Assembly (NCBI GenBank): GCA_041661105.1
Contig: JBAZVB010000002.1
Coordinates: 299,865-363,864 of the forward strand
Reading direction: 5' to 3'
DNA: 64,000 nt
Origin: Patescibacteria group bacterium
GTDB taxonomy: Bacteria; Patescibacteriota; Patescibacteriia; 2-12-FULL-60-25
Shown here in pieces: positions 6,957 to 45,618 of the stretch (the first letter of the stretch is position 1; each line of letters opens with the position of its first letter). The translations under genes were made by a program, and so were the position numbers. The notes beneath the pieces were generated by a model that did no database searches, was not told the origin of the DNA, and saw only the letters and a list, made by a program, of their open reading frames with translations.

Positions 6957-9458
6957 CTATTTAAATCTCACTCCTTTGTCAGTGGCCAGGACGGTGATCT
7001 TCGACCTTTTATGTTTTGAAATGAGGTACTTGCCGAGCGGCGCGCTGATTTCTCTTTCGATGAGGCGTCTTATAGCGCGGGCGCCTTCCTCGGCCGGCAG
7101 ATTCTGTTGCATGAGCCAGTCCCTAACAGAATCGGTAACTTCGCAGGCCACACGTTGCATACGTTCCAATCGTTCGCAGACCTCGGTTAGTTCACGATCT
7201 AGAATGCGTCGTAAGTTATCAGCCGAAAGGGGATTAAAGATGATGATCCGATCCAGGCGATTAATTAATTCTGACTTGAAACGTTGTTTAACCTCGTCGC
7301 TGATCAGGGAACTCAAGTCATTGCTTTCGCGCGTAAAACCCAGATGCTTCCTTTGCAGTTGATCTGATCCGACGTTGGATGTCAGAACGATGTAGGCGTT
7401 GCGGAAAGAGATGGTCCGGCCCGTCGCATCGGTTAAACGTCCGTCTTCTAATATCTGGAGCAAAGTTTGCTGCACGTCCTGATGAGCTTTTTCAATTTCA
7501 TCAAAACAAACCACGCAGTGCGGACGTTTGCGTACGGCATCGGTCAGCTTGGTGCTCTCGCGATAACCGACATAGCCGGCCGGTGAACCTACCAGTTTGG
7601 AAATGGAGTGCGATTCGGAAAATTCCGACATGTCGAGTTTGATCAAGGCGTCTTCGCGGCCGTAGAGCTCTTGCGCCAGTGTCCTGGCTAATTCGGTTTT
7701 GCCGGTACCCGAAGGGCCAACCAAAAGCATGGTGGCTTTGGGCCGTCTGGGATCATGCAAACCAAGCCTGGCGCGACGGACAACGTCGGCCACCTGGGCA
7801 ATCGCTTCATCCTGACCCAAAACATGTTCAGCTAATCTCTCTTCCAAGCCAGTCAATCTCTCCCGTTCCGAAGCCAGGATGACTGACACGGGCACGTGGG
7901 CGATGCGGGCCACGACTTTGGCCACATCTTCCGGTTTGATAATCGGCTTGTCGTGCTCACGCAGTTCGTCTAACTCTTTCGTCAAAGCGTCGCGATCCAT
8001 TTCTAAACAGGCCGCGTCAGCCGAGGCTTGCTCGGCGGATTCCATTTCATTGCGTTGTACGTGTTGTTCAGCTTCTTCTTTTTTAGCTTTGACGGCGGCA
8101 TCCAAGACGGACAATCTTTCCATTTGGTCGCGCGATTGGCGTTTGGCTACCACCGAAGCCGCGGCTTCATCCATCAAATCAACGGCTTTGTCCGGGAAAA
8201 GCCGGTCAGTCATAAAGCGTTCAGCCAGATCAACGGCCGCTCGGAGCGTTTGCGGGTGGTATTTAACTCCGTGATGTTTGGCATACCTTTCTTCGAGTCC
8301 CTTTAGCATTTCATGCGTGGCTTCAGCGGTCGGCTCATCAATCATGATGGGCTGGAAGCGGCGTTCGAGGGCCGCGTCCGGCTCGATGTGTTTTTTATAT
8401 TCAGCCCAAGTCGTAGCGCCCACGCAACGGATTTCGCCGCGGGCCAAAGCCGGCTTGAGGATGTTGGCCGCGTCCAGTGAACCGGAAGTCGATCCCGCTC
8501 CTACGATGTTATGAATTTCATCGATAAAAAGAATGGTTTTGGGATCAAGGCGAGCCTCTTCCACTATTTGCTTGAGCCGTGCTTCAAATTCTCCGCGATA
8601 CATGGTCCCGGCGACCGTCGAAGCCAAATCGAGCGAAAGTAAACGATGGCCGTAAAGCGCGTCCGGCACATCGCCTTCTGCCAGGCGTTTAGCTAAGCCT
8701 TCGACGATAGCCGTTTTGCCGACGCCCGGGTCTCCCAGCAAAACCGGATTGGATTTGGTGCGTCTGATTAAGACCTCGATTACACGTTCAAGTTCAGCTT
8801 CGCGTCCAATCACAGGGTCGAGCTTTTCGGCGGTTTCCGGTTGTGTCAAGTTACGCGCAAAACTTTCCAAAGCCGAAGACGTCTGTTGATTGCGCCAAGG
8901 GCGTTGGCCCGGATATTGATTTTGAGCATGATCTTCTTCTGCGCCGGGCATAATGTCGTCATCATCCTGGGCGCGTTGCAAGACCTGATCCATGGAAGGG
9001 AAGTTAGAAGTTGAGCGCAGGACGCTTTCGACCTGTTCGCGCAAAGTCTTGAGCGGGATGTTATGCGATTTGAAAAAATCAACGATAGTGAGATCGTCGC
9101 ATTCGGCCAGGGCCGCGGCCAAGTGTTCGGTCCCGACGAATTTATGTTCTCTCAGGTGGGCGGTCACGATGCACTTCTCAAGAATCTTTTTGACGGCCGG
9201 AGAAAGATCCAGGGCCATGAGCGATTTATGCTGATTAGGACTGCCCCGGAAAAAATTAGCCGCTTCTTGGGCATTACAGCCGGACTTTTTAAGTATCTCG
9301 CCGCCCAAAGCGCCCTTCTCTTCCAATAAACCCACGATCAGGTCGCCCGGTTCAACGATTTCCCGTCCATTGGCTACGGCAAAATTCAACGCCTTTTGCA
9401 GCGTGTCCTTCAAGTGGTTGGTAAACCGGTGGATGAGATCGTTGGGCAACATACTCAA
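6957..9458 (-). CDS. clpC: ATP-dependent Clp protease ATP-binding subunit (ClpC-type class I AAA+)
   Basis: Clp N-domain repeats. Two Walker A sites, [15 protein letters not shown] and [16 protein letters not shown]. The short middle domain fits ClpC rather than ClpB. Confidence 0.85.
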
Positions 9459-9572
9459 TTAAAGCAAAAAGCAAAATTCAAAGAGCAAAATGCAGGTATC
9501 GCTATGCGATTTAATATATATTTGTGCCGAAGGCCTCCTGCATTTTGAAATTTGCTTTTTGAATTTTGAATT
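9457..9572. repeat. Composite inverted-repeat element, copy 1 (AATTCAAA/GCAAAA word arms plus conserved core)
   Basis: Arms gcaaaattcaaagagcaaaatgcagg / cctgcattttgaaatttgctttttgaattttgaatt. Core ggtatcgctatgcgat-AT-rich-gccgaaggcctcc is shared with 13677, 30411 and 59077. Confidence 0.8.
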
Positions 9573-9625
9573 ATCATATTGCTTATCCGGTGTGGGAGTA
9601 TATGGGCAGTGTCAGGTCTCAAGTT

Positions 9626-12511: not shown

Positions 12512-13675
12512 ATGTTAATCGTCCTTATTTTTTTGTTGGTCTTGTCCGTTTTGGTGCTGATCCACGAATTCGGGCATTTTATTGCGGCCAGGATTTTTGG
12601 CGTCAAAGCTGATGAGTTTGGCTATGGTTTTCCGCCCCGGGTGGTCGGTATCGTTAAGGATAAGGGCAAATGGCATAAAGTCAGCGGTAAAGACGAAAAA
12701 GAATACCAGAACACAATCTGGTCTTTGAATTGGTTGCCTTTGGGTGGCTTCGTGCGGATCAAAGGTGAAAACGGGGAAGATGAGACCATAAAAGACAAAG
12801 ATGCTTTCCATGCTAAGCCCATCTGGCAGCGCATCATTATCCTGGCGGCGGGCGTGGCCATGAATTGGTTGCTGGCCTTCGTACTTTTTACCGGCATCTT
12901 TACTTTTGGAGCCACGGCCATTCTGGATGGCGTGCCAGCTGACGCTAAGATAGAAAACAGAGAGGTTAGGATCACTAATCTCGTATCGGGCGGACCAGCG
13001 GACAAAGCGGGTTTAATACCGGGCGATGCAATCATTTCCATTGCAGGAATCAAAGCCGGAGATTACGAACAAGCTAGAACGACCATCGCGGATCAAAAAG
13101 ACAAACCTTTCGAAGTTGATTACCAACGGGATGGCGAGTCTAAAAAAGTTACGGTCAATCCGATTTATCTGGAAGAAATTAAAAAATTTGGCATCGGGGT
13201 CGGCCTGGCTGACGTGGGTAAAGTTAAATTCCGTTTTGATAGGGCTTTGCTTTATGCCGGTGAGGCGGTTGTCGGTTACACCCGCGACATCGTTGTCAGT
13301 TTTGGGACTTTGATTCGCGACTTGGTTCTCTTGCGCCACGTGGAACAAGAAGTGGCTGGTCCGATCGGGATTGCGGTCATCACCGGACAGGTGGCCAAGC
13401 AGGGTATTGTGCCGCTCCTTCAGTTCGCGGCCATTCTTTCCATTAACCTGGCTGTCGTCAACTTCCTGCCGATTCCGGCCTTGGACGGTGGCCGGGTGTT
13501 TTTCCTCATCATTGAAAAGATTAGACGCAAGCCTGTGGCGCGTAGAGTCGAAGCCAGAATCCACCAAATAGCTTTTTTGACTCTAATCGTCTTGATCTTG
13601 CTAGTCACCTTGAGAGATATCGGCAAATACGGCGGAGTTATTTGGGGAGGAATTAAGGGGATGGTAGGAATATGA
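12512..13675 (+). CDS. rseP: RIP zinc metalloprotease RseP (M50 site-2 protease with PDZ domain)
   Basis: HEFGHF zinc motif, a central PDZ-like segment, and NFLPIPALDGG. Confidence 0.9.
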   Translation: MLIVLIFLLVLSVLVLIHEFGHFIAARIFGVKADEFGYGFPPRVVGIVKDKGKWHKVSGKDEKEYQNTIWSLNWLPLGGFVRIKGENGEDETIKDKDAFHAKPIWQRIIILAAGVAMNWLLAFVLFTGIFTFGATAILDGVPADAKIENREVRITNLVSGGPADKAGLIPGDAIISIAGIKAGDYEQARTTIADQKDKPFEVDYQRDGESKKVTVNPIYLEEIKKFGIGVGLADVGKVKFRFDRALLYAGEAVVGYTRDIVVSFGTLIRDLVLLRHVEQEVAGPIGIAVITGQVAKQGIVPLLQFAAILSINLAVVNFLPIPALDGGRVFFLIIEKIRRKPVARRVEARIHQIAFLTLIVLILLVTLRDIGKYGGVIWGGIKGMVGI

Positions 13676-13676: not shown

Positions 13677-13788
13677 AATTCAAAGAGCAAAATTCAAAGA
13701 GCAAAATTTTGGTGGCCTACGGCATTCATTAAATAAATATCCCGAAGGGATACCGATATTTTGAATTTTGCTTTTTGAATTTTGAATT
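13677..13788. repeat. Composite inverted-repeat element, copy 2 (core in opposite orientation)
   Basis: Arms aattcaaagagcaaaattcaaagagcaaaatttt / gatattttgaattttgctttttgaattttgaatt. Core ggtggcctacggcat-AT-rich-atcccgaagggatacc is the reverse complement of the core in the other copies. Confidence 0.8.
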
Positions 13789-14897: not shown

Positions 14898-14910
14898 CTA
14901 AACGCAGGCT

Positions 14911-15462
14911 ATGTCCAACTCCTCAAAAAAGTTAACAAAGATTCTAGATTACGGTTTAGCTTTATTATCGATTGTTATTTTTATAACGGCCTTTTTTACT
15001 TCATCCAAAGAATTTATAACTACAACGTTTTCTCAAGTCAAAATTTGCATCTCATCTTCTTTTTGTTTCTGGCCGGGATTCATAGTTCTAGCATTGTTAT
15101 TAATCTCGGCTTTGGTTTTGTTCTTGATAATACGTACGAGAACGAATAAAGAGAGATGGTATTTATCTTTAAACAAAGCAGCTTGGCCATCCTTTATTTT
15201 TGGAGCTATTTTGCTGATTGTATCAATTTTAAAATTTTCAAATGCCACGGAGTTAATAGATCTTCCCTCAATGTTATTGATGTTATTTTCTGTAATTGTA
15301 CCCTTCCTAACATTAATTATTTTCTGTATTAGTTTCATTGCAAGTCCCAAATCCAAAATAAGAGAAAACATGGTTTTCTTCAGAACTATATCGATTGTAG
15401 GTTTTATCGTGAGTTGTATATTAGGACCGGAATTATTGATAGTACTGTTTGTAATGTCTTAA
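14911..15462 (+). CDS. Small multi-pass membrane protein (183 aa), unknown function, AT-rich
   Basis: About 5-6 hydrophobic segments. Low GC relative to pheS and pheT. Confidence 0.55.
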   Translation: MSNSSKKLTKILDYGLALLSIVIFITAFFTSSKEFITTTFSQVKICISSSFCFWPGFIVLALLLISALVLFLIIRTRTNKERWYLSLNKAAWPSFIFGAILLIVSILKFSNATELIDLPSMLLMLFSVIVPFLTLIIFCISFIASPKSKIRENMVFFRTISIVGFIVSCILGPELLIVLFVMS

Positions 15463-15468
15463 GAGAAT

Positions 15469-15831
15469 ATGAAAAAAAGAATACTCGTGCCTATACTGAT
15501 TGGTTGTGCCTTAGAAATTGGGGCGGGGATCTTGTTTTTAACGAATGCCACTTCTGATTTGGTTTATACTCTGATTTTGTCCGGGCTAGTTTTTGTAGGG
15601 GTAGGAGTAGTTATTTTGATATTCGCAAAATATTTTGAAAAAAGTCATATACAAATGCATGGCATATCGTTGATACTTCTTGGATTGCTTTCAACCATTC
15701 CGATTATTTATGGTCTGGTTAAGTCCGCGTTAATGAAAGATTGGCTAGCATTTCTGATGGTATTTGTTATTTTTCTGTGTGCTTCATTTATTTGCGGTTT
15801 GGGACTATTTTTTTGGAAAATAAAACGTTAA
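15469..15831 (+). CDS. Small multi-pass membrane protein (120 aa), unknown function
   Basis: Four hydrophobic segments. Starts 7 nt after the previous stop. Confidence 0.55.
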   Translation: MKKRILVPILIGCALEIGAGILFLTNATSDLVYTLILSGLVFVGVGVVILIFAKYFEKSHIQMHGISLILLGLLSTIPIIYGLVKSALMKDWLAFLMVFVIFLCASFICGLGLFFWKIKR

Positions 15832-15871
15832 ATTCCTCGTAATTCGTAATTTTGAATTCGTAATTAAAAGT

Positions 15872-15961
15872 ATGAACCTCCTAGTCTCCTACGATTGGCT
15901 GAAAGAGTATGTCAGCCTTAAAGAAAAGCCCGAAGATTTCGCGGCGCGGATTTCGCTTTGA
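15872..15961 (+). pseudogene. Remnant of the pheT 5' end (29 codons then stop)
   Basis: About 88 nt colinear with pheT 17207 onward, with 2 mismatches that are both synonymous (GAA/GAG, TAC/TAT). Encodes MNLLVSYDWLKEYVSLKEKPEDFAARISL then TGA. Confidence 0.9.
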
Positions 15962-15987
15962 GTGGTAAAAACTAAACATTGTTTAAT

Positions 15988-16350
15988 ATGACTACGACTG
16001 ATCGTTTCGAACCATATCTTGAACCTCTGTATGTGCCAGCGTTTTTCGGTTGGTTGACTTTGATTTTTGATCATTATCTGACTCGAAGTACTTTTCTTCT
16101 GTATGTTGGCATGATTTTTTCTGGCTTACTTATTCTTACTTCAATTCTGGTCATAGTGTACGAATTTCTTTTATTTTTTAGAAGAATAAAACCACGCGCA
16201 TTGATAGATGGAAACGTTAAAATATATAAATTTATCAGATGGATATTTGGTGCAGTAGGCCTTGTTTCGGTTCTAATTTCTGTCGGGTTTATCCTTGCTC
16301 TTGGATCAATGCTGTCATCAGGTCCTTGGGATAAATTAGATCAAATATGA
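15988..16350 (+). CDS. Small membrane protein, paralogous to the C-terminal half of 16660..17172
   Basis: MTTTDRFEPYLEPLYVP... versus MTAIDPFEPYLEPLYLL... in the later gene. Three to four TM segments. The ORF track starts it at 15979 with an alternative start codon. Confidence 0.55.
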   Translation: MTTTDRFEPYLEPLYVPAFFGWLTLIFDHYLTRSTFLLYVGMIFSGLLILTSILVIVYEFLLFFRRIKPRALIDGNVKIYKFIRWIFGAVGLVSVLISVGFILALGSMLSSGPWDKLDQI

Positions 16351-16583
16351 AAAAGTCTTCCAGATACATAATAAGTGCTGTCCTGGGTGCAATAGGCGTG
16401 ATGAGCTATGTCTTTTATGTCGCTGTTACTTATATTGATTTTGATCCGGATCCAAATATTGGTAGCGTAGCCTTTGTTAAACCAGAAATAGTATCAGGGG
16501 TTATTTTATTCGGTGGTATATCGTTATTGATCGGTGCAATATTAGCAATCAGCACGTTATTCTCGAAGTCTAAAAACATATGA
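16347..16583 (+). CDS. Small two-TM membrane protein (78 aa)
   Basis: ATGA overlap with the upstream gene. Two hydrophobic helices. Confidence 0.5.
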   Translation: MKKSSRYIISAVLGAIGVMSYVFYVAVTYIDFDPDPNIGSVAFVKPEIVSGVILFGGISLLIGAILAISTLFSKSKNI

Positions 16584-16613
16584 ACCTCCTAGTCTCCTAC
16601 GATTGGCTAAAGA
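16580..16613 (+). pseudogene. Second, shorter remnant of the pheT 5' end
   Basis: atgaacctcctagtctcctacgattggct is identical to pheT 17207..17235, then the sequences diverge. Confidence 0.85.
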
Positions 16614-16623
16614 TTCTTTTGAA

Positions 16624-16654
16624 GTCATCCTGAACTTGTTTCAGGATCTCGATA
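16624..16654. repeat. Half copy of the gtcatcctgaac element
   Basis: gtcatcctgaacttgtttcaggatctcgata, identical to the copy downstream of pheS. Confidence 0.85.
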
Positions 16655-16659
16655 TCAAT

Positions 16660-17172
16660 ATGCCTAAAACAGTTTCCTTTACACTAATGATTGTTGGTTT
16701 TTTGATTTCCTCCACTCTTTGGGCTTGGATTGCTTACCCGCAACAATGGTATCCAGGGTTGTATGTCGTTGGTTTCTATGGAGTCATTTTGATGTTTATT
16801 GGAGGGATAGGAGCCCTCAAAGAAAAAATTCGTAATTTAAACATGACCGCAATCGATCCTTTTGAGCCGTATTTAGAGCCTTTATACTTACTTGTACCCG
16901 GCCCTATTGGCATCATTTTTTCTATTTTTGTTTGGGAGAATGGATTGGCTATTATGTTTTTTTACTACACGATGATGACAATTAGTGGCCTAGTTGTAAT
17001 ATATTTGGGACTTCTTATTCTCAGAATACTACCAGCCAAAGCATTGGTTAAAGAGATTGGACCAATTTATTCAAGAATAAGGTGGGTTTTGGCAACAGCA
17101 GGCGTAGCTGGATTATTTTTTACTTTTTTATGTGTCGTAGCGGCCGTTTTCAGAATAAATCTCAGTTCATAA
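16660..17172 (+). CDS. Multi-pass membrane protein (170 aa), unknown function
   Basis: Start taken at MPKTVSF. The ORF-track start at 16603 would translate the pheT remnant and the repeat (VILNLFQDL). The C-terminal half is paralogous to 15988..16350. Confidence 0.55.
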   Translation: MPKTVSFTLMIVGFLISSTLWAWIAYPQQWYPGLYVVGFYGVILMFIGGIGALKEKIRNLNMTAIDPFEPYLEPLYLLVPGPIGIIFSIFVWENGLAIMFFYYTMMTISGLVVIYLGLLILRILPAKALVKEIGPIYSRIRWVLATAGVAGLFFTFLCVVAAVFRINLSS

Positions 17173-17206
17173 ATTATAGATAAGTAAATAAGAATTTCAA
17201 AAATAT

Positions 17207-19789
17207 ATGAACCTCCTAGTCTCCTACGATTGGCTGAAAGAATACGTCAGCCTTAAAGAAAAGCCCGAAGATTTCGCGGCGCGGATTTCGCTTTCTGGTC
17301 CGTCCGTGGAAAAGATTCTGCCGCTCTATTCGGAACTCGACGGGATCGTGGTCGGAGCAGTCCGGTCACTTAAGCCGCACCCCCAGGCGGATAAACTTCA
17401 GGTCGTGTCCGTCGATATAGGACGCACAGGACGCGAAGGACGTTCAGGACTCTTGTCGTTAGTCTGTGGCGGATCAAATCTTTATGTAGGACAAAAAGTC
17501 GCCGTGGCCCTTGTTGGCGCTAAAGTCAGATGGCATGGTCAAGGAGATTTGATTGAGCTTAAGCCGGCCTTAATCCGCGGCGTCAAAAGCGAGGGCATGA
17601 TTTGTGCGGCGAGTGAAATTGGTTTGGGCGAGGCTTTCCCACACGAAGAACGCGAGATTTTGGATTTGGGTAAAGAAATACCAGAGATGGACGTCGAGCC
17701 AGGCACCCCGCTATCGGATGCTTTGGGTGGCAAGGACGACGTGGCCATGGATATTGAAGTTACCAGCAACCGTCCTGATTGTATGGGTATGGTTGGCATG
17801 GCTCGCGAAGCCTCAGCGATTTTGAAACAGCCTTTTAAGTGGAAAGAGCCAAGCCTAAATTCAAAATTCAAAATTCAAAATTCAAAATCAGGACGCGGGA
17901 CGACGGGTGTGAAAGTTACCATCGACGCTAAGAAAGCTTGTTCACGCTACATTGGAGTCAGAATCGACAACGTGAAGGTCAAAAAGTCACCTTGGTGGCT
18001 CAAACGTCGCTTAATGTCGGCCGGTATCCGTCCCATTAATAATCTCGTGGATATCACAAATTACGTCATGCTCGAAACGGGTCAGCCGATGCACGTGTTC
18101 GACGCGGCTAAGCTACGTCGTCATCCTGAACTTGTTTCAGGATCTAAGACACGTAACACGGAGATGCTGAAACAAGTTCAGCATGACACACCACCGGAGA
18201 TCCGCGTGCGATTCGCACGGACGGGGGAGAGGATAATGGCTTTGGATGGTAAGACTTATCAGTTGGACGATAAGATTTTGGTGATTGCTGATGCCGAGCG
18301 TCCGGTAGCCATTGCTGGCGTGATGGGAGGAGAACAGACCGGAGCTGACGAAAAGACAACCAACATCGTGCTCGAAGCCGCGACTTTTGATCTAGTCATC
18401 GTTCGCAAAGGTTCACGCAAGATTAATTTGCAATCAGATTCGCAACTGCGTTTTGAAAAAGGTTTGTCCCAGATGGCCCCGCCTTCAGCCATGGCACGAG
18501 CGATTGAGTTGGTCTTGGAATTAGCCGGAGGTCAGATTGTCGGCACACCGGCTGACGTTATGCCCGCCGCCTATAAACCTCTGTCATATTCCGTCACGAC
18601 GGATGAGGTAAATGGTTTGATTGGCATTGAAGTTAAAAAGACTGAAATGGTGGATGTGCTCAAACGCCTGGGTTTTGGAGTCAAAGTTACCGGTAAACAC
18701 ATCAAAGCCACTGTCCCATGGTGGCGTGATCATGATATTGAAATGGGACGCGACTTGGTTGAGGAAATCGCCCGCGTCATTGGTTATGCCAGCATCCCTT
18801 CGATTGTGCCTATCGCCGTCGCGCCTCGTGAGACTGATCCGGTTATCAAATGGGAGGATCGCCTCAAAGACGTGGCTAAAGCGGCGGGTTACACGGAGGT
18901 TTTTAGTTGGTCTTTCGTGTCAGAGGATTTGTTGCGCAAGGCCAGTTATGACCCGGCTCATCTTTTGCGCCTCCAGAATCCTTTGTCTAACGACTGGCTG
19001 GTCATGCGTCCCTCGCTTATGCCTGGCATGTTGCAGGCTGTGGCGGATAATCAAGAACGCGAAAAAGATCTTCATCTTTTTGAGTGCTCAAATGTTTACA
19101 TTCGTCCCACGTCCCACGTCCCACGTCCTACGGAAAGGACGATCAGGACGAAGGACGATCAGGACGTTTGGTCTGACCTGCCGGATGAAGTGCCGGAGTT
19201 TACGCTCATGATTCGCGAGGCGGATAATCAAGATCCTTGGCGCAAGGCCAAAGGATTCGTTGAACATCTTTTCGAGGAGTATGGCATCGGCGAGGTGCAT
19301 TGGAAGCGCGTCTCACGTGACGCGGTTTGGCATCCCGGTCGCACGGCCCAGGCTTTTAGCGGCGATAAGCTGTTGGCCACGGTCGGGGAGATCGGTCCGC
19401 AGATGTCCGAAGCCTTTAAGATCAAGGGTCGAGTTGGCGCAGCCGTGGTTAACATTCGTGAGTTCATCTCTTTTGCCAAAATTTCCAAAGCCTATGTGCC
19501 GCCCACGCCTTATCCCGAGGCTAAGCGCGATTTAGCATTGGTTGTCGATCGGAATGTCGATTATCGTGAACTGGAATTGGCCATCCTCCGCGCGGATGAA
19601 CGTATCTTAAAAGTTGAATGGTTTGATACTTACGCCGGCAAGGGGATTGTTGACAACAAAAAATCAGTGGCCATGCATTTGACTATCGGCTCACGCGAAA
19701 AAACCCTCGAAAGCTCTGAGGTGGATGGCGTGCTGGAAGATGCGGTTTTAGCTTGTAAGGAAAAGTTCAAGGCAGAAGTAAGAGGATAA
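17207..19789 (+). CDS. pheT: Phenylalanine--tRNA ligase beta subunit, carrying several repeat-derived in-frame inserts
   Basis: N-terminal MNLLVSYDWLKEYV, tRNA-binding domain, and B3/4, B5 and anticodon-binding-like regions. At 860 aa it is longer than I would expect for PheT, which I attribute to the inserts. Confidence 0.95.
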   Translation: MNLLVSYDWLKEYVSLKEKPEDFAARISLSGPSVEKILPLYSELDGIVVGAVRSLKPHPQADKLQVVSVDIGRTGREGRSGLLSLVCGGSNLYVGQKVAVALVGAKVRWHGQGDLIELKPALIRGVKSEGMICAASEIGLGEAFPHEEREILDLGKEIPEMDVEPGTPLSDALGGKDDVAMDIEVTSNRPDCMGMVGMAREASAILKQPFKWKEPSLNSKFKIQNSKSGRGTTGVKVTIDAKKACSRYIGVRIDNVKVKKSPWWLKRRLMSAGIRPINNLVDITNYVMLETGQPMHVFDAAKLRRHPELVSGSKTRNTEMLKQVQHDTPPEIRVRFARTGERIMALDGKTYQLDDKILVIADAERPVAIAGVMGGEQTGADEKTTNIVLEAATFDLVIVRKGSRKINLQSDSQLRFEKGLSQMAPPSAMARAIELVLELAGGQIVGTPADVMPAAYKPLSYSVTTDEVNGLIGIEVKKTEMVDVLKRLGFGVKVTGKHIKATVPWWRDHDIEMGRDLVEEIARVIGYASIPSIVPIAVAPRETDPVIKWEDRLKDVAKAAGYTEVFSWSFVSEDLLRKASYDPAHLLRLQNPLSNDWLVMRPSLMPGMLQAVADNQEREKDLHLFECSNVYIRPTSHVPRPTERTIRTKDDQDVWSDLPDEVPEFTLMIREADNQDPWRKAKGFVEHLFEEYGIGEVHWKRVSRDAVWHPGRTAQAFSGDKLLATVGEIGPQMSEAFKIKGRVGAAVVNIREFISFAKISKAYVPPTPYPEAKRDLALVVDRNVDYRELELAILRADERILKVEWFDTYAGKGIVDNKKSVAMHLTIGSREKTLESSEVDGVLEDAVLACKEKFKAEVRG
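18120..18187. repeat. Full gtcatcctgaac...ttcagcatgac element inside the pheT reading frame
   Basis: gtcatcctgaacttgtttcaggatc...gagatgctgaaacaagttcagcatgac, translated in frame as HPELVSGSKTRNTEMLKQVQHD. Confidence 0.85.
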
Positions 19790-27374: not shown

Positions 27375-27536
27375 TTGTCACCTCGACTGGAGCATCCCTC
27401 CCTTCTGTCATCTCGAGCGATAGTCTCACGCCTGAGGCGGATGCGCCTATGGAGCAGAGAGATCGCATAAACCGAAGTCACTTAGTCACATTCGACCGAC
27501 GATTTCTCGACTCGTCGTACTCGCTCGAAATGACAA
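27375..27536. repeat. MITE/REP-like inverted-repeat element
   Basis: gtcatctcgagcgatag (27407-27423) pairs with tactcgctcgaaatgac (27518-27535). An extra outer copy ttgtcacctcgac is also present. Its translation accounts for the spurious ORFs 27100..27468 and 27478..27765. Confidence 0.6.
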
Positions 27537-27597
27537 TGAGGAGTACTGATTGGTTTGATGTTTGTTTCTTGGTTTTTGTGTTATAATTTCCCCCAGT

Positions 27598-28850: not shown

Positions 28851-30200
28851 ATGGAGGAAGGCATGAAAAAGATTCATGACGTTTCAAAACAGGGTGCACA
28901 TTCCAAGGCTCACAAGTGTCCCAAGGCCAAGGAGTTGCTTGGACCGCCGGTGGACGTTTGGTCTGTTGAAGACGCCCAAACCACGGAAGATGTGATTCTG
29001 CATTGCATGCCCGCGTTTGGCGCAGCCTACGTCCGGCGTATCTACCAGATCCTGGACTTGGCCATTGGTCGGGGCGTGCCGCTCATCATGGCCGTGGCCG
29101 GACCGGTCACCGTGTCCAACCAACACCGCGCCTGGCTCATCCCTTTGCTCAAGACCGGCTGGGTGGCATACCTGACCATCACGGACGCGGCTTGTTACCA
29201 CGACGGCCACGACTCGCTTGAGAAATTCGATGCGCGCCCCTTGCGCGAGGCGGCTATCGAAGGCAGAGATCTGGAGTACGGGGAGAACAAGGTAATCCGT
29301 ATCACGGACGTGGGCATGAAAGAAGAGATCTTGTATAAGCAGGATCAATTCTTCACGGCTCTACTTCGGCAACCTGAGTTTCAACGCAAGATGACCGGCA
29401 CTGAATTTCGCCATTTGGTAGGCAAGTACTACCAAGCCCAGGAAAAGGCACATGGCGTCAAGCCGGGGCTTCTTTCCACTTGCTATGACATGGGCATCCC
29501 TGTGTTCGTGGGCGCGCCCGGCGACGGGTCTGCGTATCTGAACTCGGTCAAACTCTGGGCACTTAATCGACTGGGTGTGATTAACCACAAGTTTGGGATC
29601 GATGTGCATGAAGAGGTGTTCGAGTCATGCGCCTACCACTACTACGGTTTGACTCATGACCCCAAGCAGTTGGCCATCCTGATTTTGGGTGGCGGCGTGC
29701 CCAAGAACTTCAGCCTCCAGCCCGAACCCACGCTCTCGCAGATCTTCATGCTGGATGATATCCGCGGATACGACTATGACGTGCAGATCGTGAGCTCGCC
29801 GGTTACGGACGGATCGCTTTCCGGTTGCAAAGGGCAGGAAGCGCACACTTGGGGCAAAGTCTCGCGCGAGGCGTTGGCTTCAACCGTGGAGAGTGTGCAA
29901 GCGGATTACTCCATGATTATGCCCTTCATCGTCCGAGCCCTGCTCGAAAAACGCAAGCGCGTGATCAAGCAATACGACGCCAAAAAAGTACATTTCCCTG
30001 TGCGCGAGCAGGACAAGGGTTACTTGCGAGGTTACGCCACGCATCCATACCGATTGTACGATCTGCGCGAAGAACTCAGATCCGCGCTCTTGTGCAAGAT
30101 CAATGAGCCCAAACAGCTCAAGCGCCTCAAGAGTACATTCAACTTCCCGCTTCAGTTCCTGGCCCGCGCCAAGGGCGGAGGCATGGGGGACGACGTCTAG
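28851..30200 (+). CDS. Deoxyhypusine synthase-like protein
   Basis: LILGGGVPKNF and VTDGSLSGCKGQEAHTWGKVS resemble the DHS family NAD/spermidine-site motifs. TTGACA-17-TAGGAT promoter upstream. GC-rich. The start may be the Met at 28863. Confidence 0.65.
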   Translation: MEEGMKKIHDVSKQGAHSKAHKCPKAKELLGPPVDVWSVEDAQTTEDVILHCMPAFGAAYVRRIYQILDLAIGRGVPLIMAVAGPVTVSNQHRAWLIPLLKTGWVAYLTITDAACYHDGHDSLEKFDARPLREAAIEGRDLEYGENKVIRITDVGMKEEILYKQDQFFTALLRQPEFQRKMTGTEFRHLVGKYYQAQEKAHGVKPGLLSTCYDMGIPVFVGAPGDGSAYLNSVKLWALNRLGVINHKFGIDVHEEVFESCAYHYYGLTHDPKQLAILILGGGVPKNFSLQPEPTLSQIFMLDDIRGYDYDVQIVSSPVTDGSLSGCKGQEAHTWGKVSREALASTVESVQADYSMIMPFIVRALLEKRKRVIKQYDAKKVHFPVREQDKGYLRGYATHPYRLYDLREELRSALLCKINEPKQLKRLKSTFNFPLQFLARAKGGGMGDDV

Positions 30201-30224
30201 GCAGTCACTCGACTGTCTTTTTTT
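30201..30224 (+). terminator. Intrinsic terminator after the DHS-like gene
   Basis: cagtc-actc-gactg followed by tcttttttt. Confidence 0.5.
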
Positions 30225-30226: not shown

Positions 30227-30255
30227 TTGACGTTTTAAATCGATCGGTCTATTCT
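30227..30255 (+). promoter_or_regulatory. Sigma-70-type promoter of the thrS leader
   Basis: TTGACG (30227-30232), 17-nt spacer, TATTCT (30250-30255). Confidence 0.5.
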
Positions 30256-30261: not shown

Positions 30262-30403
30262 TGTTCCGGCTACCAACCGGATATCGGAGGAAAACTAGAT
30301 AAAAGAGCCTCGATGAAAGTCGGGGAAGGCGGGTGGAACCGCCCCACGAAGCTTTAGCGAAGTGGGGTCCCGACGAGTTAATTATTAGCTGGTCGGATTT
30401 TTA
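30262..30403 (+). promoter_or_regulatory. Candidate T-box leader (Thr-specific) with a very short specifier hairpin
   Basis: Antiterminator-like fold: A1 CGGG (30330-33), 7-nt bulge UGGAACC (30334-40), A2 GCCCCAC (30341-47), loop, GUGGGGU (30362-68), CCCG (30369-72). GGGUGGAACCGC matches the T-box consensus. Hairpin uccgg-CUACCAA-ccgga (30265-30281) presents ACC followed by A. A weak alternative hairpin cccgac...gtcgg plus a T-run lies at 30369-30403. Confidence 0.6.
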
Positions 30404-30410
30404 TATAAAT

Positions 30411-30521
30411 GCAAAATTCAAAGAGCAAAATTCAAAATGAAGGTGTCGCTTCGCGATTTAATTATAATTTTAATGCCATAGGCCACCAGCATTTTACTTT
30501 TTGAATCTTGAATTTTGAATT
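30411..30521. repeat. Composite inverted-repeat element, copy 3
   Basis: Arms gcaaaattcaaagagcaaaattcaaaatgaagg / agcattttactttttgaatcttgaattttgaatt. Core ggtgtcgcttcgcgat-AT-rich-gccataggccacc. Confidence 0.8.
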
Positions 30522-30533: not shown

Positions 30534-32321
30534 ATGCATTCTTCATTAGAGACCACGCGTCACAGCGCAGCCCATGTCATGGCGGCCGCTATTCAAAGTT
30601 TGTTTCCCAACGCCAAGTTCGGCGTGGGGCCAGCCATCGACAATGGTTTTTACTATGACATAGATATCGGTCGCACGGTCACGCCGGAAGATTTGAAAGA
30701 TATCCAGAAAGCCATGCAAAAGCTGGCTAATAAGAAATTAGCTTTCGAGCGGCAGGAGATGAAGGCTGATGAGGCTATCGAACTTTTTGAAAAGCTTGAC
30801 CAGCCTTTTAAGGTTGAATTATTGAACGATATTAAAACTAAAGGCACAACCAAACTCTCGGCTGAAGAGGAGGGCGACGTCGATCCGGCCATGAAAGGCA
30901 AGGTTAGTATCTACAAGACGGGTGAGTTCACAGATCTCTGTCGCGGCCCTCACGTAGAAGACTCGAGCCAGATTGGAGCCTTTAAAGTCTGGAAAATGGC
31001 CGGCGCCTTTTGGAGAGGCAAAGAAACCAATCCGCAACTTCAGCGTATTTATGGTTTGTGTTTTGCGACGCAAGATGAGTTGGAGGCTTATGAGAAGATG
31101 ATGGTAGAAGCTGAAAAGCGTGACCATAAAAAATTGGGCAAGGAACTCGGTTTATTCTCTTTCTCAGACTTGGTAGGTAGCGGTCTGCCTCTCTGGTCGC
31201 CTAAGGGCACGATTTTGAGGACTTTGTTGGATGAATACGTCTGGGAACTGCGCAAAGCCAGGGGTTTTAATAAAGTTGCCATTCCTCACATCACCAAAAA
31301 AGAGCTCTACATCAAGAGCGGCCATTGGGCCAAGTTTAAGGATGAGCTTTTTAAGATCGTGACCCGTGAAAAGCACGAGTTCGCGCTCAAGCCCATGAAC
31401 TGTCCGCATCACACTCAGATTTTTGATTCTGAGATGCGGAGCTATCGCGACATGCCCCAGCGCTATGCTGAAACGACCATGTGCTATCGCGATGAGCAGA
31501 CGGGCGAACTGTCTGGCCTTTCCCGCGTTCGATGCATCACTCAGGATGATGCGCACGTTTTTTGCCGCCAGAACCAGATTGAGCAAGAGATGTTTGCCAT
31601 CTGGGATATTGTAGATGCTTTTTATGCCACCTTTGGTTTTGAGCTCAAGCTCAGGCTCTCAACGCATGATCCGGATCATTTTGAGAAATACTTGGGGACG
31701 CCGGAGGTGTGGCAAGGGGCTGAGTCTCAACTTAAGAAGTTAATCGAGAAGCGAGGAGTGGATTATGTGGAAGGCAAGGGCGAGGCGGCTATGTACGGCC
31801 CCAAACTCGACTTCATGGGCAAGGATGCTTTGGGTCGGTTGCACCAAGTGGCTACTATTCAGCTCGATTTCAACATGCCGGCTAATTTTGACCTGAATTG
31901 CGTCAATGAAAAAGGCGAAAAGGAACCGGTCGTTATGATCCATTGCGCCATTATGGGATCAATCGAGCGTTTCTTGGCGGTCTTGATCGAGCATTATGCC
32001 GGTGCTTTCCCGCTTTGGCTTTCTCCGGTCCAGGTGGCAGTCTTGCCGGTAGCTGATCGTCATAATGACGCGGCCTATGCCTTCGCGTCTAAGTTAATAG
32101 AACAGGGGATCAGGGTTGAGATTGATAATACGACTGAATCCGTTGGTAAAAAAATCCGCAACGCCGAAAAGCAAAAAACGCCTTGCATGCTGGTTTACGG
32201 TGAAAAAGAAGCTGAGGGCAAAGAACTGACAGTTCGTTGGCGTGGTCAAGCAGACCAAGAAACGCTACCTATTGCAGCGTTCCTGGAAAAAGTCTTAAAT
32301 TTAATTATAAATAGACAGTAG
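30534..32321 (+). CDS. thrS: Threonine--tRNA ligase (begins at the editing-domain HxxxH; no TGS domain)
   Basis: RHSAAHVMA editing motif, class II core, HCAIMGSIERF, and a C-terminal anticodon-binding domain. Confidence 0.95.
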   Translation: MHSSLETTRHSAAHVMAAAIQSLFPNAKFGVGPAIDNGFYYDIDIGRTVTPEDLKDIQKAMQKLANKKLAFERQEMKADEAIELFEKLDQPFKVELLNDIKTKGTTKLSAEEEGDVDPAMKGKVSIYKTGEFTDLCRGPHVEDSSQIGAFKVWKMAGAFWRGKETNPQLQRIYGLCFATQDELEAYEKMMVEAEKRDHKKLGKELGLFSFSDLVGSGLPLWSPKGTILRTLLDEYVWELRKARGFNKVAIPHITKKELYIKSGHWAKFKDELFKIVTREKHEFALKPMNCPHHTQIFDSEMRSYRDMPQRYAETTMCYRDEQTGELSGLSRVRCITQDDAHVFCRQNQIEQEMFAIWDIVDAFYATFGFELKLRLSTHDPDHFEKYLGTPEVWQGAESQLKKLIEKRGVDYVEGKGEAAMYGPKLDFMGKDALGRLHQVATIQLDFNMPANFDLNCVNEKGEKEPVVMIHCAIMGSIERFLAVLIEHYAGAFPLWLSPVQVAVLPVADRHNDAAYAFASKLIEQGIRVEIDNTTESVGKKIRNAEKQKTPCMLVYGEKEAEGKELTVRWRGQADQETLPIAAFLEKVLNLIINRQ

Positions 32322-32398
32322 ACGGTAGCAGGTAGACGATAGCCTGAAAATCAAACTACGTTCTGGCTACCAGCTACCGTCTAAAAGCTATCGTCTAG
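32311..32398. repeat. TAGACGATAGC/GGTAGAC-word hairpin between convergent genes (likely bidirectional terminator)
   Basis: atagacagtagacggtagcaggtagacgatagcc ... ggctaccagctaccgtctaaaagctatcgtctag. Confidence 0.75.
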
Positions 32399-35381: not shown

Positions 35382-35456
35382 CTAGACGATAGCTGGTAGA
35401 CAGTAGGCGGTAGCCGGATTTTTTGGAAGCTACTGTCTACCGTCTATTGTCTAAGG
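35382..35456. repeat. TAGACGATAGC-word hairpin
   Basis: ctagacgatagctggtagacagtaggcggtagcc ... gctactgtctaccgtctattgtctaagg. Confidence 0.75.
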
Positions 35457-35462
35457 CCTAGG

Positions 35463-35801
35463 TCAGGCTTTAACCAACTGCTTGAAAATCTCCGGGTGCT
35501 TGGCAGCGATTTGGGACAAGACCTTCTTGTCCAAGAGGATCTTGCGTTTCTTGAGGCTGCCCATGACTTTATTGAACGAAGTTCCCAGCTCGTGGGCCGA
35601 GGCGTTGATGCGGATCTGCATCAATCCGCGATTGACGCGCTTCTTAAGCTTGCGGCTGACATAAGCCTGCACGCCTGCTTTGGCCGAAGCGGTTTTGGCG
35701 AGAGTGATCTTTGATTTGCGACCCCACATCATGCCTTTGGTGCGCGCCAATATATTCTTACGGCGTTTGATGCGGTGCATTCCACGTTTGACTCGGGGCA
35801 T
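35463..35801 (-). CDS. rplT: 50S ribosomal protein L20
   Basis: MPRVKRGMHRIKRRKNILARTKG... is a typical L20 N-terminus. Confidence 0.95.
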   Translation of the reverse strand: MPRVKRGMHRIKRRKNILARTKGMMWGRKSKITLAKTASAKAGVQAYVSRKLKKRVNRGLMQIRINASAHELGTSFNKVMGSLKKRKILLDKKVLSQIAAKHPEIFKQLVKA

Positions 35802-35818: not shown

Positions 35819-35880
35819 ATCAACATTCAACATACAATAAGCGATTGCCGATAATTGAATGTTGAATGTTATATGTTGAA
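35819..35880. repeat. CAACATTCAACA-word hairpin inside the rpmI-rplT spacer
   Basis: atcaacattcaacata ... aattgaatgttgaatgttatatgttgaa. Confidence 0.7.
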
Positions 35881-35882
35881 AA

Positions 35883-36071
35883 TTAGTTAAAGGGGAGCAG
35901 GGCTTTGACCGTTCTCGTGTATTGTTTGGGGAGTGACTGGTCACGACGCTTCTTGCTGGTGATTTTACCGGAGTCGCGGGCGTTAAAATGATCTTGTCCG
36001 CCATGGCGTTTCATGACCTTGCCGGTTTTGGTGATGCGCACGCGTTTGGCAACGGCTTTGCAGGTTTTCAT
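35883..36071 (-). CDS. rpmI: 50S ribosomal protein L35
   Basis: MKTCKAVAKRVRITKTGKVMKRHGGQDHFNA... in the infC-rpmI-rplT gene order. Confidence 0.9.
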   Translation of the reverse strand: MKTCKAVAKRVRITKTGKVMKRHGGQDHFNARDSGKITSKKRRDQSLPKQYTRTVKALLPFN

Positions 36072-36180
36072 AATAATGGTCTACGAAATTACGAATTTTT
36101 TACGAATATACGAAATTACGAATTAGGATTGTTAGGACATTCTGGCTACTGGCTATCGTCTACCAGCTACCGTCTTTTAT

Positions 36181-36738: not shown

Positions 36739-36742
36739 ACTT

Positions 36743-36810
36743 AGTAACTAGTAACAAGTAACTAGTAACTAGTGAACGGATTTGACTCGTTACTCGTTAC
36801 TTTTTACTAC
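36743..36810. repeat. GTAAC-word hairpin immediately 3' of ssrA
   Basis: agtaactagtaacaagtaactagtaactagtgaac ... tcgttactcgttactttttactac. Confidence 0.7.
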
Positions 36811-37229: not shown

Positions 37230-37697
37230 TCAAATGTCTTCGCCGCGCATAAACCGTTTAGTTTCGCGGTCCAGATCGCGGTCTTTGATTTTTTGGCGCT
37301 TCTCAAAGGTTTTTTTGCCTCGAGCCAGCCAAAAACCAACCTTAATCCGTTGGCCACGAGTATATAGTGATATGGGTATCAATGTCAAGCCTTTTTGCCC
37401 TAATTTACCCGTTAAATATCGTATTTCTTTAGCGCTTAAGAGCAAATCCCTGGTTCTTTCGGTGTCATGCGGGGACTGGGCAGAGGCCTTTTTATAGCGG
37501 GCAATGACCGCTCCAATCAGCCTGGGACGGCCTCCTTGCAGGATGATGTGGGCGGCGTCGATCTTGGCCCCGCCTTCGCGGGTCGATTTAACTTCCTGGC
37601 CGGTCAATGCCAAACCGCCCTCGAATTCCTCGAGCTTTTCATAGTCATAACCAGCTTTACGGTTGGTGGCCAAAGTCGGCATGGAACTATCGTACAA
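37230..37697 (-). CDS. smpB: SsrA-binding protein
   Basis: LATNRKAGYDYEKLEEFEGGLALTGQEVKS and the basic C-terminal tail. Confidence 0.95.
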   Translation of the reverse strand: MYDSSMPTLATNRKAGYDYEKLEEFEGGLALTGQEVKSTREGGAKIDAAHIILQGGRPRLIGAVIARYKKASAQSPHDTERTRDLLLSAKEIRYLTGKLGQKGLTLIPISLYTRGQRIKVGFWLARGKKTFEKRQKIKDRDLDRETKRFMRGEDI

Positions 37698-37758
37698 CTA
37701 ACAACTGACAACTAACAAGAGTAAAACTGTTAAACTCTTGTCAGTTGTTAGTTGTCAC
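37695..37758. repeat. CAACTAACA-word hairpin between divergent smpB and the permease gene
   Basis: caactaacaactgacaactaacaagagt ... actcttgtcagttgttagttgtcac. Confidence 0.75.
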
Positions 37759-42045: not shown

Positions 42046-42186
42046 CCCCCTCATCCCAACCCTTCCCACCGAACTCGGGGGAAGGGCTTTATGGCTCAAC
42101 AGAGCCTCTTTTTGTTTATATCAGGCAAACAGGGTTTACGTCATCCGAATATCGATAGTAAGGTTAGCCGCAGATGCCCGATACCC

Positions 42187-42245
42187 TTGACAAATATGCT
42201 GATTTGTGCTATATTATCGTATTCTTTAAACACCAAAGTTGTGTG
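42187..42245 (+). promoter_or_regulatory. Promoter plus conserved 5' leader module, copy A
   Basis: TTGACA (42187-92), 17 nt, extended -10 TGc TATATT (42210-15), then ttctttaaacaccaaagttgtg. About 75 % identical by hand alignment to 63174..63232, with the same spacing. Confidence 0.65.
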
Positions 42246-42484
42246 ACCCTGAAGCCGTTTTGTGCCAATTGGGAAGTCTTCCTCCTCTTCTCAGGAGGCA
42301 CAGGACGGCTCTAGGGTCTCACCAACGCAGCTCACCCCAGGTTTACTTCATTGTGACTTGGGTTGCTGGGCCGCGTGGTGTGTGCCCAGTACTTTGACTT
42401 TTACGAGGGAACTAACCTGACCCGCAGACAGCGGGCAGAACATTGGATTCTGCCCCACGAACGGGCAGGAAGGAGCTCGAGAAG

Positions 42485-43828: not shown

Positions 43829-43954
43829 TCCCTCGGCTTGAGGCGGTATGAGTACTCTCATATCGCCTCCCCGACACGAGTTACCAACTGTCAGTTGATA
43901 CCTCATGTCGCTGCACGATTCATTCGCGCAGATGCTCTAAGACAACTAAAAATT

Positions 43955-45610: not shown

Positions 45611-45618
45611 TACGTTTC

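Follow-up and report, generated by a model that had tools for sequence, protein, structure and literature searches.

A hairpin-shaped intergenic repeat with heptamer arms and a two-hairpin core, probably a dispersed palindromic element of a Patescibacteria lineage

Imperfect palindromes of ~100–150 bp, known as Correia/NEMIS elements in Neisseria and as ERIC/IRU elements in enterobacteria, lie beside start and stop codons and are transcribed with the neighbouring genes. Their long hairpins are processed by RNase III or RNase E, they exert orientation-dependent effects on mRNA and their insertion is polymorphic among strains; Correia elements are also characterized by a TA duplication and defined 26-bp inverted repeats. 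Small host-dependent genomes have been invaded by small palindromic repeats of another kind, the Rickettsia palindromic elements (RPE). In cyanobacteria, Elhai et al. reportedly described, in 2008, heptamer arrays (STRR) with embedded small dispersed repeats (SDR). The SDRs have been reported only in Nostocaceae (PMC5861425). The REP/BIME/REPIN elements are proteobacterial and include the REPINs (PMC3116915) and the REPs that carry a GTAG/CGTC tag (PMC3733652).

The 64-kb stretch of DNA analysed here (the window) contains four copies of a hairpin-shaped, non-coding repeat of ~116 nt that lies between genes (Table 1), all of them at the positions given in the preliminary description. The contig carries a fifth copy 7 kb beyond the window (L004 1700–1830), and the family as a whole numbers 21 copies: besides these five, two come from GTDB Patescibacteria metagenome-assembled genomes (MAGs) and the others from relatives and JGI groundwater metagenomes. 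The host clade appears to be a group of Patescibacteria close to Candidatus Uhrbacteria, judging from PheS and ThrRS homologues. The core consists, in order, of GGT, a 5-bp hairpin (hairpin 1), an AT-rich spacer of 11–21 nt, GCC-NNN-GGC (hairpin 2) and C(A/T)CC. It is enclosed by imperfect inverted arms of 25–45 nt per copy, which are 71–84% complementary over the longest arms of the four window copies; the arms, as terminal inverted repeats, end in the conserved termini (AT)AATTC...GAATT(AT). The conserved centre with two mini-hairpins that had been proposed is well beyond chance in the window: the hairpin-1 motif GGTRTCSCNNNGSGAT has 4 occurrences where 0.38 would be expected (none of 100 shuffles reached 4), and the two-hairpin pattern has 3 where 0.00 would be. 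The reported loss of hairpin 2 from copy 4 (59110) was also seen. The arms are tandem heptamers of the ARWKCAA or AATNNNN type, with words such as AATTCAA, AGAGCAA, AAAGCAA and AATGCAA, or AATTACG plus AATGCCA; their period of 7 (TRF) replaces the word lengths of 8 or 6 given earlier. Nor are the words freely different between copies, as had been thought. The same word set is used in 16 of the 21 copies, and at the loci examined every run of at least three AATTCAA/AGAGCAA-type words adjoins a core, with the sole exception of 17858–17885. A second small element lies nested within an arm of one copy. No ORF is conserved, as frames from the ATG at the arm–core junction differ in length and are mostly very short in the copies read; a small ORF beginning at this ATG was rejected as a candidate on the basis of that variation and the absence of the ATG in copy 2.

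Table 1. Positions of the four copies in the window, their parts and their immediate neighbours (bit scores are from the covariance model)
Feature	Position	Strand	Parts or sequence	Score or neighbour
Copy 1, A-rich heptamer arm	9457–9494	+	AAAGCAA AAAGCAA AATTCAA AGAGCAA AATGCAG	adjoins clpC start codon (minus strand, 9452–9454)
Copy 1, core	9495–9538	+	GGT, hairpin 1, AT spacer, hairpin 2, CTCC	71.1 bits
Copy 1, hairpin 1	9498–9510	+	ATCGC-TAT-GCGAT	
Copy 1, AT spacer	9511–9525	+		
Copy 1, hairpin 2	9526–9534	+	GCC-GAA-GGC	
Copy 1, T-rich heptamer arm	9539–9573	+		
Copy 2, T-rich arm (minus-strand reading)	13677–13710	−		rseP stop codon (13673–13675) 1 nt before
Copy 2, core	13711–13754	−	GGT, hairpin 1, AT spacer, hairpin 2, CACC	77.9 bits
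Copy 2, hairpins 1 and 2		−	ATCCC-TTC-GGGAT; GCC-GTA-GGC	
Copy 2, A-rich arm (minus-strand reading)	13755–13788	−		pheS ATG (13798) 9 nt beyond arm end
Copy 3, A-rich arm	30407–30441	+		thrS leader terminator-like hairpin ends ~10 nt before
Copy 3, core	30442–30487	+	GGT, hairpin 1, 17-nt AT spacer, hairpin 2, CACC	67.5 bits
Copy 3, hairpins 1 and 2		+	GTCGC-TTC-GCGAT (G·T closing pair); GCC-ATA-GGC	
Copy 3, T-rich arm	30488–30521	+		thrS ATG (30534) 12 nt after arm end
Copy 4, left arm	59076–59109	+	AATGCCA AATTACG AATTACG AATTACA AATTCAG	begins 11 nt 3′ of tRNA-Thr(UGU)
Copy 4, core	59110–59152	+	GGT, hairpin 1 ATCGC-TTC-GCGAT, 21-nt AT spacer, GCCTCC	54.9 bits
Copy 4, right arm	59153–59193	+		rpmG ATG (59203) 9 nt after arm end

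Near-identical copies of ~116 nt were found at unrelated loci in two cases (L013/L015a and L014/L025). In both, the match extends across the arms and the core and stops abruptly at AATTC...GAATT(A), with no relation between the flanks. What spreads is thus the whole composite, which runs against the earlier proposal that the core is the selected unit. The repeat was found only outside coding sequence; DNA-pattern matches within coding sequence (L007, L008, L010, L012, L018, L021, L022, L024, L026 and L028) were discarded as chance matches. No further diverged copies were recovered by the covariance model (R1) in ~330 kb of loci, and IMG/VR viral contigs gave 0 matches to the repeat.

The presence/absence comparison that had been called for revealed that copies are gained or lost between close relatives. 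All five contig sites are empty in the closest sister genome, GCA_054640875.1, in which the rseP–pheS spacer measures 14 nt, 10 nt lie between the thrS leader and its ATG, 15 nt lie between tRNA-Thr and rpmG, and the mur-ligase TAA abuts tRNA-Glu, each without the repeat. A search for YibE/F homologues returned few close relatives, and one match supplied the sister-genome locus that corresponds to the sites of copies 4 and 5. The covariance model gave 0 matches in 57 kb of the sister genome versus 5 in 84 kb here, and independent Logan assemblies reproduce the empty and filled states alike (L031, L035, L037 and L040). In the outgroup GCA_028688515.1, some heptamer element occurs at 3 of the 3 sites examined: the core with AATTAAG arms and same-type arms with different cargo (L034 5375–5525) were observed at equivalent sites, and a core-less heptamer hairpin at the copy 3 site (L039). 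Recent insertion accounts for this outgroup pattern no better than ancestral presence followed by loss in the sister, or hot spots, would. No target-site duplication was recognised at four filled/empty sites, nor a consistent direct repeat in the two recent-copy pairs; in these AT-rich, diverged spacers, 2–4 nt (TA or AATT) would be beyond resolution. Other heptamer palindromes in the window are likewise indels relative to the relatives.

In the consensus structure, 87% of cells are paired, a value as high as which was seen in 0 of 500 shuffles, and folding z-scores range from −3 to −5. The swap described earlier in hairpin 1 (atcgc/gcgat versus atccc/gggat) is real: this G-C to C-G change preserves the pairing of hairpin 1 and breaks an alternative fold, an extended palindrome joining the two core halves. 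The alternative fold was rejected on that account and because its 70% of paired cells is no better than shuffles. The recommended covariation check with more copies yielded a single covarying pair, in hairpin 1 (CG in 14, GC in 6). This covariation is restricted to the genome of the window plus two close relatives and so reflects few events, and hairpin 2 never varies. No part of the repeat is more conserved than the two hairpin modules. In the orthologous pair L016/L027, they are identical at 27 of 27 and 24 of 24 positions (51/51 together, with a probability of ~1e-6 at the coding-sequence rate), whereas identity is 4/12 (33%) in the spacer, 73–81% in the arms and 76–77% in the flanking coding sequence. 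Such conservation at an orthologous site, unlike the prediction for a decaying selfish copy, points to host-level or structural constraint.

The mixed orientation noted previously, two copies each way, holds for the four window copies but not for the family, in which 14 antisense and 2 sense copies lie between co-directional genes (16 copies, p=0.004; 11 versus 2 with orthologues collapsed, p=0.02). Every antisense copy starts within ~10 nt of a stop codon, and the four sense copies are those without a translated ORF directly before them (Fisher p ~3e-4, in a post hoc test). Replication as the determinant of orientation was rejected, since the window has positive GC skew throughout and yet copies point in both directions. 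Copy 3 sits between the leader terminator and the thrS ATG, and copy 4 between tRNA-Thr and rpmG within one promoter–terminator unit; both fall within predicted 5′ UTRs of essential genes. The idea that the spacer or arm end holds a sigma-70 promoter was also rejected, as there is no −35 element at a fixed distance, the spacer varies in length and only weak 9/12 matches were seen; −10-like hexamers are common in this AT-rich DNA.

When compared with the described systems, the repeat resembles REP/BIME/REPIN elements in being a short extragenic palindrome in many copies, a mosaic of small palindromic units around internal motifs, with no coding capacity, no target duplication recognised, probable co-transcription and partial domestication, and a copy number that differs among close relatives. 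It differs from them in that its arms are tandem heptamers rather than a single 20–40 bp palindrome, in its Patescibacteria host and in lacking both the GTAG/CGTC tag, which is absent from its AATTC/GAATT ends, and a visible RAYT. GTAG/CGTC does occur in some other palindromes of the window, those of the TAGACGG and CTACGAAT types, but these belong to different families. Its likeness to Correia/NEMIS and ERIC/IRU elements lies in size, palindromic form and position at gene edges, the comparison of sequence being the Rfam scan alone; the heptamer periodicity and the two-mini-hairpin core are found here and not in those elements. That scan returned only tmRNA and tRNAs in the window at the gathering threshold and no family for the repeat, and at E≤1 the sole match was a spurious plant miRNA precursor (20 bits versus an 83-bit threshold). 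With STRR/SDR, the repeat shares a small unit with a conserved predicted hairpin inside tandem heptamers, nested insertions and compensatory changes, a likeness of architecture; the phylum is unrelated, and arms and core here move as one 116-nt unit. The RPE parallel consists in a small host- or partner-dependent genome invaded by small palindromes, but the repeat described here was found only outside coding sequence; some window repeats of other families do lie in-frame inside pheT.

These observations suggest that the family is probably a dispersed palindromic repeat, non-coding and specific to its lineage, of the kind represented by REP/BIME, ERIC, Correia or MITE elements, in which the whole ~116-bp composite spreads. 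Of the options listed in the preliminary description, the MITE reading fits best; the family shows terminal inverted repeats, multiple copies and insertion polymorphism and lacks coding capacity. No transposase or RAYT gene was detected in gene lists or Pfam scans that covered the window with its flanking sequence (~84 kb out of a genome that is probably near 1 Mb in size), and no transposase Pfam family in the gene lists of L001, L002, L004 and L030–L041 or in a Pfam scan of 42–52 kb, a fraction of each genome. A different and rather improbable reading is that the two-hairpin core is under purifying selection in place as a functional module, either an RNA junction (protein- or ribosome-facing) for the processing or coupling of adjacent genes or the recognition part of a very small mobile element of a new kind that targets hairpins. 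The heptamer palindromes would then be made and remodelled in situ by a dedicated mechanism, a Patescibacteria counterpart of cyanobacterial STRR/SDR that possibly inserts in-frame into essential genes.

Host selection could also come first and dispersal second, the repeat being primarily a cis-acting RNA, such as a site of processing or stabilization between cistrons (an RNase III substrate or a 5′/3′ protective hairpin, for example) or a translation-coupling device. This we regard as unlikely, although the in situ conservation of both hairpin modules above the coding-sequence level, the stable folds, an orientation that follows transcription and not the GC-skew strand, the placement of antisense copies near stop codons and of sense copies after untranslated DNA, and the location of copies 3 and 4 all speak for it. 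However, the sister species manages without all five copies, its spacers there being 0–15 nt, only one pair covaries, the G·U-versus-A·C evidence points to both strands, Rfam holds no match and the function would need to be independent of gene identity. It is less probable still that the ~45-nt core alone is mobile, an SDR-like micro-element entering the loops of older, separate heptamer-repeat hairpins. One core does occur in three arm vocabularies (AATTCAA/AGAGCAA, AATTACG/AATGCCA and AATTAAG/AATTATG), same-type arms carry different cargo in the outgroup, and core-less heptamer hairpins are common, one of them at the copy 3 site; but recent duplicates share arms and core as a single block, no orthologous pair with the same arms with and without a core was found, and arm-word runs at the loci examined carry the core with one exception. 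A DNA-level site for a protein, like the BIME/RIP sites for gyrase or IHF, that organises the nucleoid or relieves supercoiling between transcription units would account for two short conserved palindromes around a bendable AT-rich linker of variable sequence, for the symmetry preserved by the G/C swap and for the extragenic location. We consider it very unlikely, as a linker of 11 to 21 nt alters helical phasing, the transcription-linked bias is hard to square with a symmetric DNA site and the repeats are absent from the sister genome. Least credible, to the point of being nearly discounted, is an intrinsic (bidirectional) terminator. Hairpin 1 followed by a T-rich tract was flagged as terminator-like in copies 2 and 3 and the A-rich and T-rich arms are symmetric, but matches to the terminator consensus at hairpin 1 are weak, and the repeat does not combine a G+C stem, a U-tract and a place at the 3′ end of a transcription unit. 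Most copies are flanked by co-directional genes whose spacers otherwise measure 0–15 nt, and copies 3 and 4 are placed between promoter or leader and the start codons of thrS and rpmG; from this context, the copies appear to lie in transcribed spacers and hence not to be plain terminators, in keeping with the earlier view that they are more than a terminator stem. Canonical terminators are in any case already present in these genomes, ahead of some copies (30199–30218; L014).

On the favoured reading, that of a dispersed palindromic repeat, the spreading unit comprises an A-rich arm of 4–5 degenerate heptamers, then a bipartite core in which a free AT-rich linker parts two short G+C hairpins, and lastly a complementary T-rich arm. 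Copies enter tiny spacers between genes, or between tRNAs or leaders and genes, and the arms then drift fast by tandem-repeat dynamics while the hairpin modules stay constant. Because the stems are conserved and the loops and linker are free, the modules may be read by a trans-acting protein, whether the element-copying enzyme or a host nucleic-acid-binding protein. Co-transcribed with its neighbours, the repeat would fold into a long A-U stem with a three-way junction at its top, and the orientation bias may stem from orientation-dependent effects on these transcripts, for instance on their stability, processing or coupling, like those described for ERIC and Correia elements.

Patescibacteria/CPR genomes are usually presented as streamlined, and a literature search returned no relevant description of small palindromic repeats in them. 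In the clade examined here, such repeats are rapidly gained and lost in spacers of 0–15 nt, in the 5′ UTRs of essential genes and, in the case of other families, within coding sequence. The repeats remodel gene ends, with rseP and thrS having termini unlike those in relatives; they give rise to spurious ORF calls, an example being the 68-aa gene across copy 1; and they break short-read assemblies, as in L005, a contig that ends at the start of copy 4. That the hairpin modules are so sharply conserved while the spacer is free provides a concrete target for finding the reader protein, and the resemblance to the heptamer repeats of cyanobacteria suggests a mechanism of general occurrence.

Re-reading of the sequence at all four sites agrees exactly with the copies reported in the preliminary description. 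The 64-kb window has four occurrences of the hairpin-1 motif GGTRTCSCNNNGSGAT, where 0.38 are expected, and three of a pattern demanding both mini-hairpins, where 0.00 are expected. Every window copy is an imperfect palindrome, with arms of 25–45 nt that are 71–84% complementary over their longest stretches. The tandem words previously described in these arms are present, but because Tandem Repeats Finder returns a period of 7 in all arms, the unit is a degenerate heptamer (AATTCAA, AGAGCAA, AAAGCAA and AATGCAA in copies 1–3; AATGCCA, AATTACG and AATTACA in copy 4). The predicted single-strand fold has a long A–U stem, a GG(T)/(A)CC closure and a loop containing the two mini-hairpins, with energies of −27 to −35 kcal/mol and z-scores of −3 to −5 relative to shuffles. 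Eight nucleotides just beyond the arm end (AATATGAT, towards the arm) are common to copies 1 and 2 and may reflect either a longer element end or a duplication carrying flank sequence; in copy 2 they form the final codon and stop of rseP, unlike the relatives' rseP. A 68-aa ORF in a public gene call spans copy 1, and a Logan contig from this organism terminates at the start of copy 4, so the repeat disturbs annotation and assembly.

The alignment of family cores (A1) reads, from the left arm, the junction AAAATG-NN, then GGT; hairpin 1, whose 5-bp stem (A/G)TC(C/G)C closes a triloop that varies (TTC, TAT, TTT, TCC and others); a linker, AT-rich and 11–21 nt long, essentially without sequence conservation; hairpin 2, GCC-NNA-GGC, its stem invariant except in copy 4, which has no hairpin 2; and C(A/T)CC, then NNCATTTT and the T-rich arm. 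The two-hairpin structure pairs 87.2% of cells, a value reached by none of 500 column shuffles, and slid controls gave 33–48%. The compensatory change proposed earlier is real (C-G in 14 copies, G-C in 6), but it is the sole covarying pair and represents few events, because each of the six G-C copies belongs to the window genome or to one of two close relatives. The two core halves are alike in inverted orientation. A fold that pairs them as an extended palindrome accounts for 70% of cells, no better than shuffles, and is broken by the G/C swap, which makes the local hairpin 1 the better-supported structure.

The total family comprises 21 distinct copies. Judged by homologues of its PheS and ThrRS, the organism belongs to the Patescibacteria, close to sequences named Candidatus Uhrbacteria. 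A fifth copy (arms AATGCCA/AATTGCG) lies beside tRNA-Glu where the contig continues past the window, as read in ENA ERZ27249449:k141_584429 (208,919 bp), which contains the window. Across GTDB, one genome per species, the true matches to the two-hairpin DNA pattern were two copies in other Patescibacteria MAGs; three further matches lay within genes by chance, a number near chance expectation. JGI metagenomes, searched with the inner hairpin-1 bases unconstrained, gave 11 true copies and seven chance matches; a looser regex added two copies, and the relatives' loci two orthologous ones. IMG/VR yielded zero copies, no Rfam family matches the element, and a covariance model from the 21 cores found no additional copies in ~330 kb of examined loci.

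Two pairs of copies (loci L013/L015a and L014/L025) are near-identical across the whole element, arms included, in unrelated flanks, with likeness beginning sharply at AATTC and ending at GAATT(A); what disperses is therefore the composite. The AATTCAA/AGAGCAA-type runs of at least three heptamers found in the examined loci adjoin a core, one single-arm run excepted. Gene order is well kept among relatives, which allows orthologous spacers to be compared. None of the five sites is filled in the sister genome GCA_054640875.1, whose PheS and ThrRS are 91% identical: the rseP–pheS spacer is 14 nt, clpC abuts a peptidase gene, 10 nt separate the thrS leader terminator from ATG, 15 nt separate tRNA-Thr from rpmG, and at the copy 5 site nothing separates the mur-ligase stop codon from tRNA-Glu. 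The covariance model of the cores (R1) found zero copies in 57 kb of this genome, and both the filled and the empty states recur in independent Logan assemblies (L031, L035, L037, L040). The state differs by site in the outgroup GCA_028688515.1 and a third relative (87–88% identical). Their rseP–pheS site is filled, with orientation and core as here and AATTAAG/AATTATG arms; at clpC, AATTCAA/AAAGCAA arms enclose different palindromic cargo; and at thrS, GCA_028688515.1 has a heptamer hairpin without the core. These states fit recurrent use of the same spacers, and also ancestral elements remodelled here and lost from the sister. Beside copy 1 is the residue of a peptidase M48 gene: three relatives have it complete between lemA and clpC, whereas here deletion has spared no more than a few codons at each end. 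Within the right arm of a copy from another MAG sits a nested G+C-rich palindrome of 48 nt (CCCGCC...GGCGGG...).

All copies are extragenic, usually starting within ~10 nt of a stop codon and ending 5–13 nt ahead of the next start codon, largely because the original spacers were so short. Orientation had been called mixed; among family copies between co-directional genes, 14 of 16 are in fact antisense to transcription (p=0.004), or 11 of 13 with orthologues collapsed (p=0.02), independently of GC-skew strand. The sense copies are those without a directly preceding translated ORF (Fisher p ~3e-4, an association noticed post hoc): copy 3 behind the T-box-like thrS leader, copy 4 behind tRNA-Thr in a unit that runs from promoter to terminator and includes rpmG, L014 after a canonical terminator and L015a in a divergent region. 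In the thrS leader a short specifier hairpin (TCCGG-CTACCAA-CCGGA) contains ACC, a Thr codon, and is accompanied by a GGGTGGAACCGCC motif and the terminator CCGAC...GTCGGATTTTT; the leader is kept in loci L038 and L039 and has no Rfam match even at E≤1.

The element is probably a dispersed palindromic repeat of the REP/ERIC/Correia/MITE-like kind. On this reading the two hairpin modules are what a protein would recognise, and the element would be co-transcribed with its neighbours, with consequences that depend on orientation. Of the options raised earlier, a MITE agrees with this mode of dispersal, which fits best, but assignment to the MITEs or REPINs in the strict sense would need a target duplication, parent element, tag or RAYT, none of which was found: comparisons of filled and empty sites gave no recognisable target-site duplication, and gene lists of the examined loci and a Pfam scan gave no transposase. 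That the element is no mere terminator stem holds, since copies 3 and 4 occupy 5′ UTRs of essential genes and the element thus cannot terminate efficiently; a terminator is a most improbable reading.

Two orthologous filled sites from different samples (L016 and L027) bear on the proposal that the core is the selected unit. Identity is 76–77% in flanking coding DNA, 73–81% in the arms and 4/12 in the linker, against 27/27 in the hairpin-1 module with its junction and 24/24 in the hairpin-2 module with its junction; at the coding-sequence rate, 51/51 has a probability of ~1e-6. This identity is the strongest support for a selected core, and it exceeds expectation for a decaying selfish copy. 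An RNA element selected mainly by the host, for processing or coupling, is an unlikely rival. A core-only SDR-like micro-element is more doubtful still, as the composite and not the core alone disperses, and a DNA protein-binding site seems quite improbable. The dispersed repeat remains the preferred reading.

Positions of the features (window coordinates unless a locus is named)
Feature	Position	Remark
Copies 1–4	9457-9572; 13677-13788; 30411-30521; 59077-59193	copy 2 inverted
Copy 5	L004 1700-1830
Shared 8 nt	9566-9573; 13669-13676	copies 1, 2
68-aa ORF	L001 5693-5899
Logan contig end	L005 3880
M48 remnant	~9578-9612
Nested element	L006 790-840	= L017
thrS leader	30262-30405
Canonical terminator; promoter-like site	30199-30218; 30227-30255	upstream of thrS leader
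Single-arm run	17858-17885
Other heptamer-armed hairpins	32312-32400; 35400-35470; 35830-35900; 36060-36160; 36742-36801; 37694-37757; 45600-45800; 54600-54690; 57630-57694; 61531-61606
pheT	17207-19789
pheT in-frame repeats	17419-17450; 17857-17888; ~18130-18190; 19103-19166
TGTCATTGCGAG...CTCGCAATGACA family	L032 5225-5420; L032 6330-6640; L034 5395-5495; ~27380-27545
GTGTAACGT stretches	59385-59437; 62944-63010	after rpmG; before tRNA-Pro
Low-GC block	~14900-17200	GC 0.41
High-GC block	42000-47200	GC 0.56-0.59

The window is rich in further palindromes with arms of tandem heptamers, in quite different, unrelated words (TAGACGG, CAACATT, ACGAAAT, TAGTAAC, ACAACTA, GAATTTT/CCAAATT, AAATAGC). 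When relatives are compared, several prove to be indels or to be built of other words at the orthologous site: the thrS 3′ end has 78 nt here and 0 nt in relatives, the rplT 3′ end also differs, and three genomes use different words in the orthologous rplT–rpmI hairpin. The density of period-7 arrays is 2.8 per 10 kb here, 0–0.5 in the sister and ~1.9 in the outgroup. In-frame arrays and palindromes within pheT coincide exactly with 6–24-aa insertions relative to the sister ('NSKFKIQNSKS', encoded by AAATTCA × 4.6; 'PELVSGSKTRNTEMLKQVQHD', by a GAACTTGTTTCAG...CTGAAACAAGTTC palindrome) and recall the Rickettsia palindromic elements. A distinct palindromic family, with TGTCATTGCGAG...CTCGCAATGACA-type ends, occurs in several spacers and, in relatives, takes the core's place between the AATTCAA-type arms that lie upstream of clpC. 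Spacers also contain two similar stretches of GTGTAACGT repeats with TGAAGGGT... after them. The low-GC block between pheS and pheT has small predicted membrane ORFs and is absent from L030, L032 and L034, where the two genes are adjacent; in the high-GC block, long ORFs overlap on the two strands and repeats of 9–12 nt occur, and the only detection was a MopE-type metal-binding motif.

A literature search suggests that small palindromic repeats of such kind are undescribed in Patescibacteria. The studied element is one family among a wider population of small palindromic repeats, and is best filed under REP/ERIC/Correia/MITE-like repeats as a variant not previously described.
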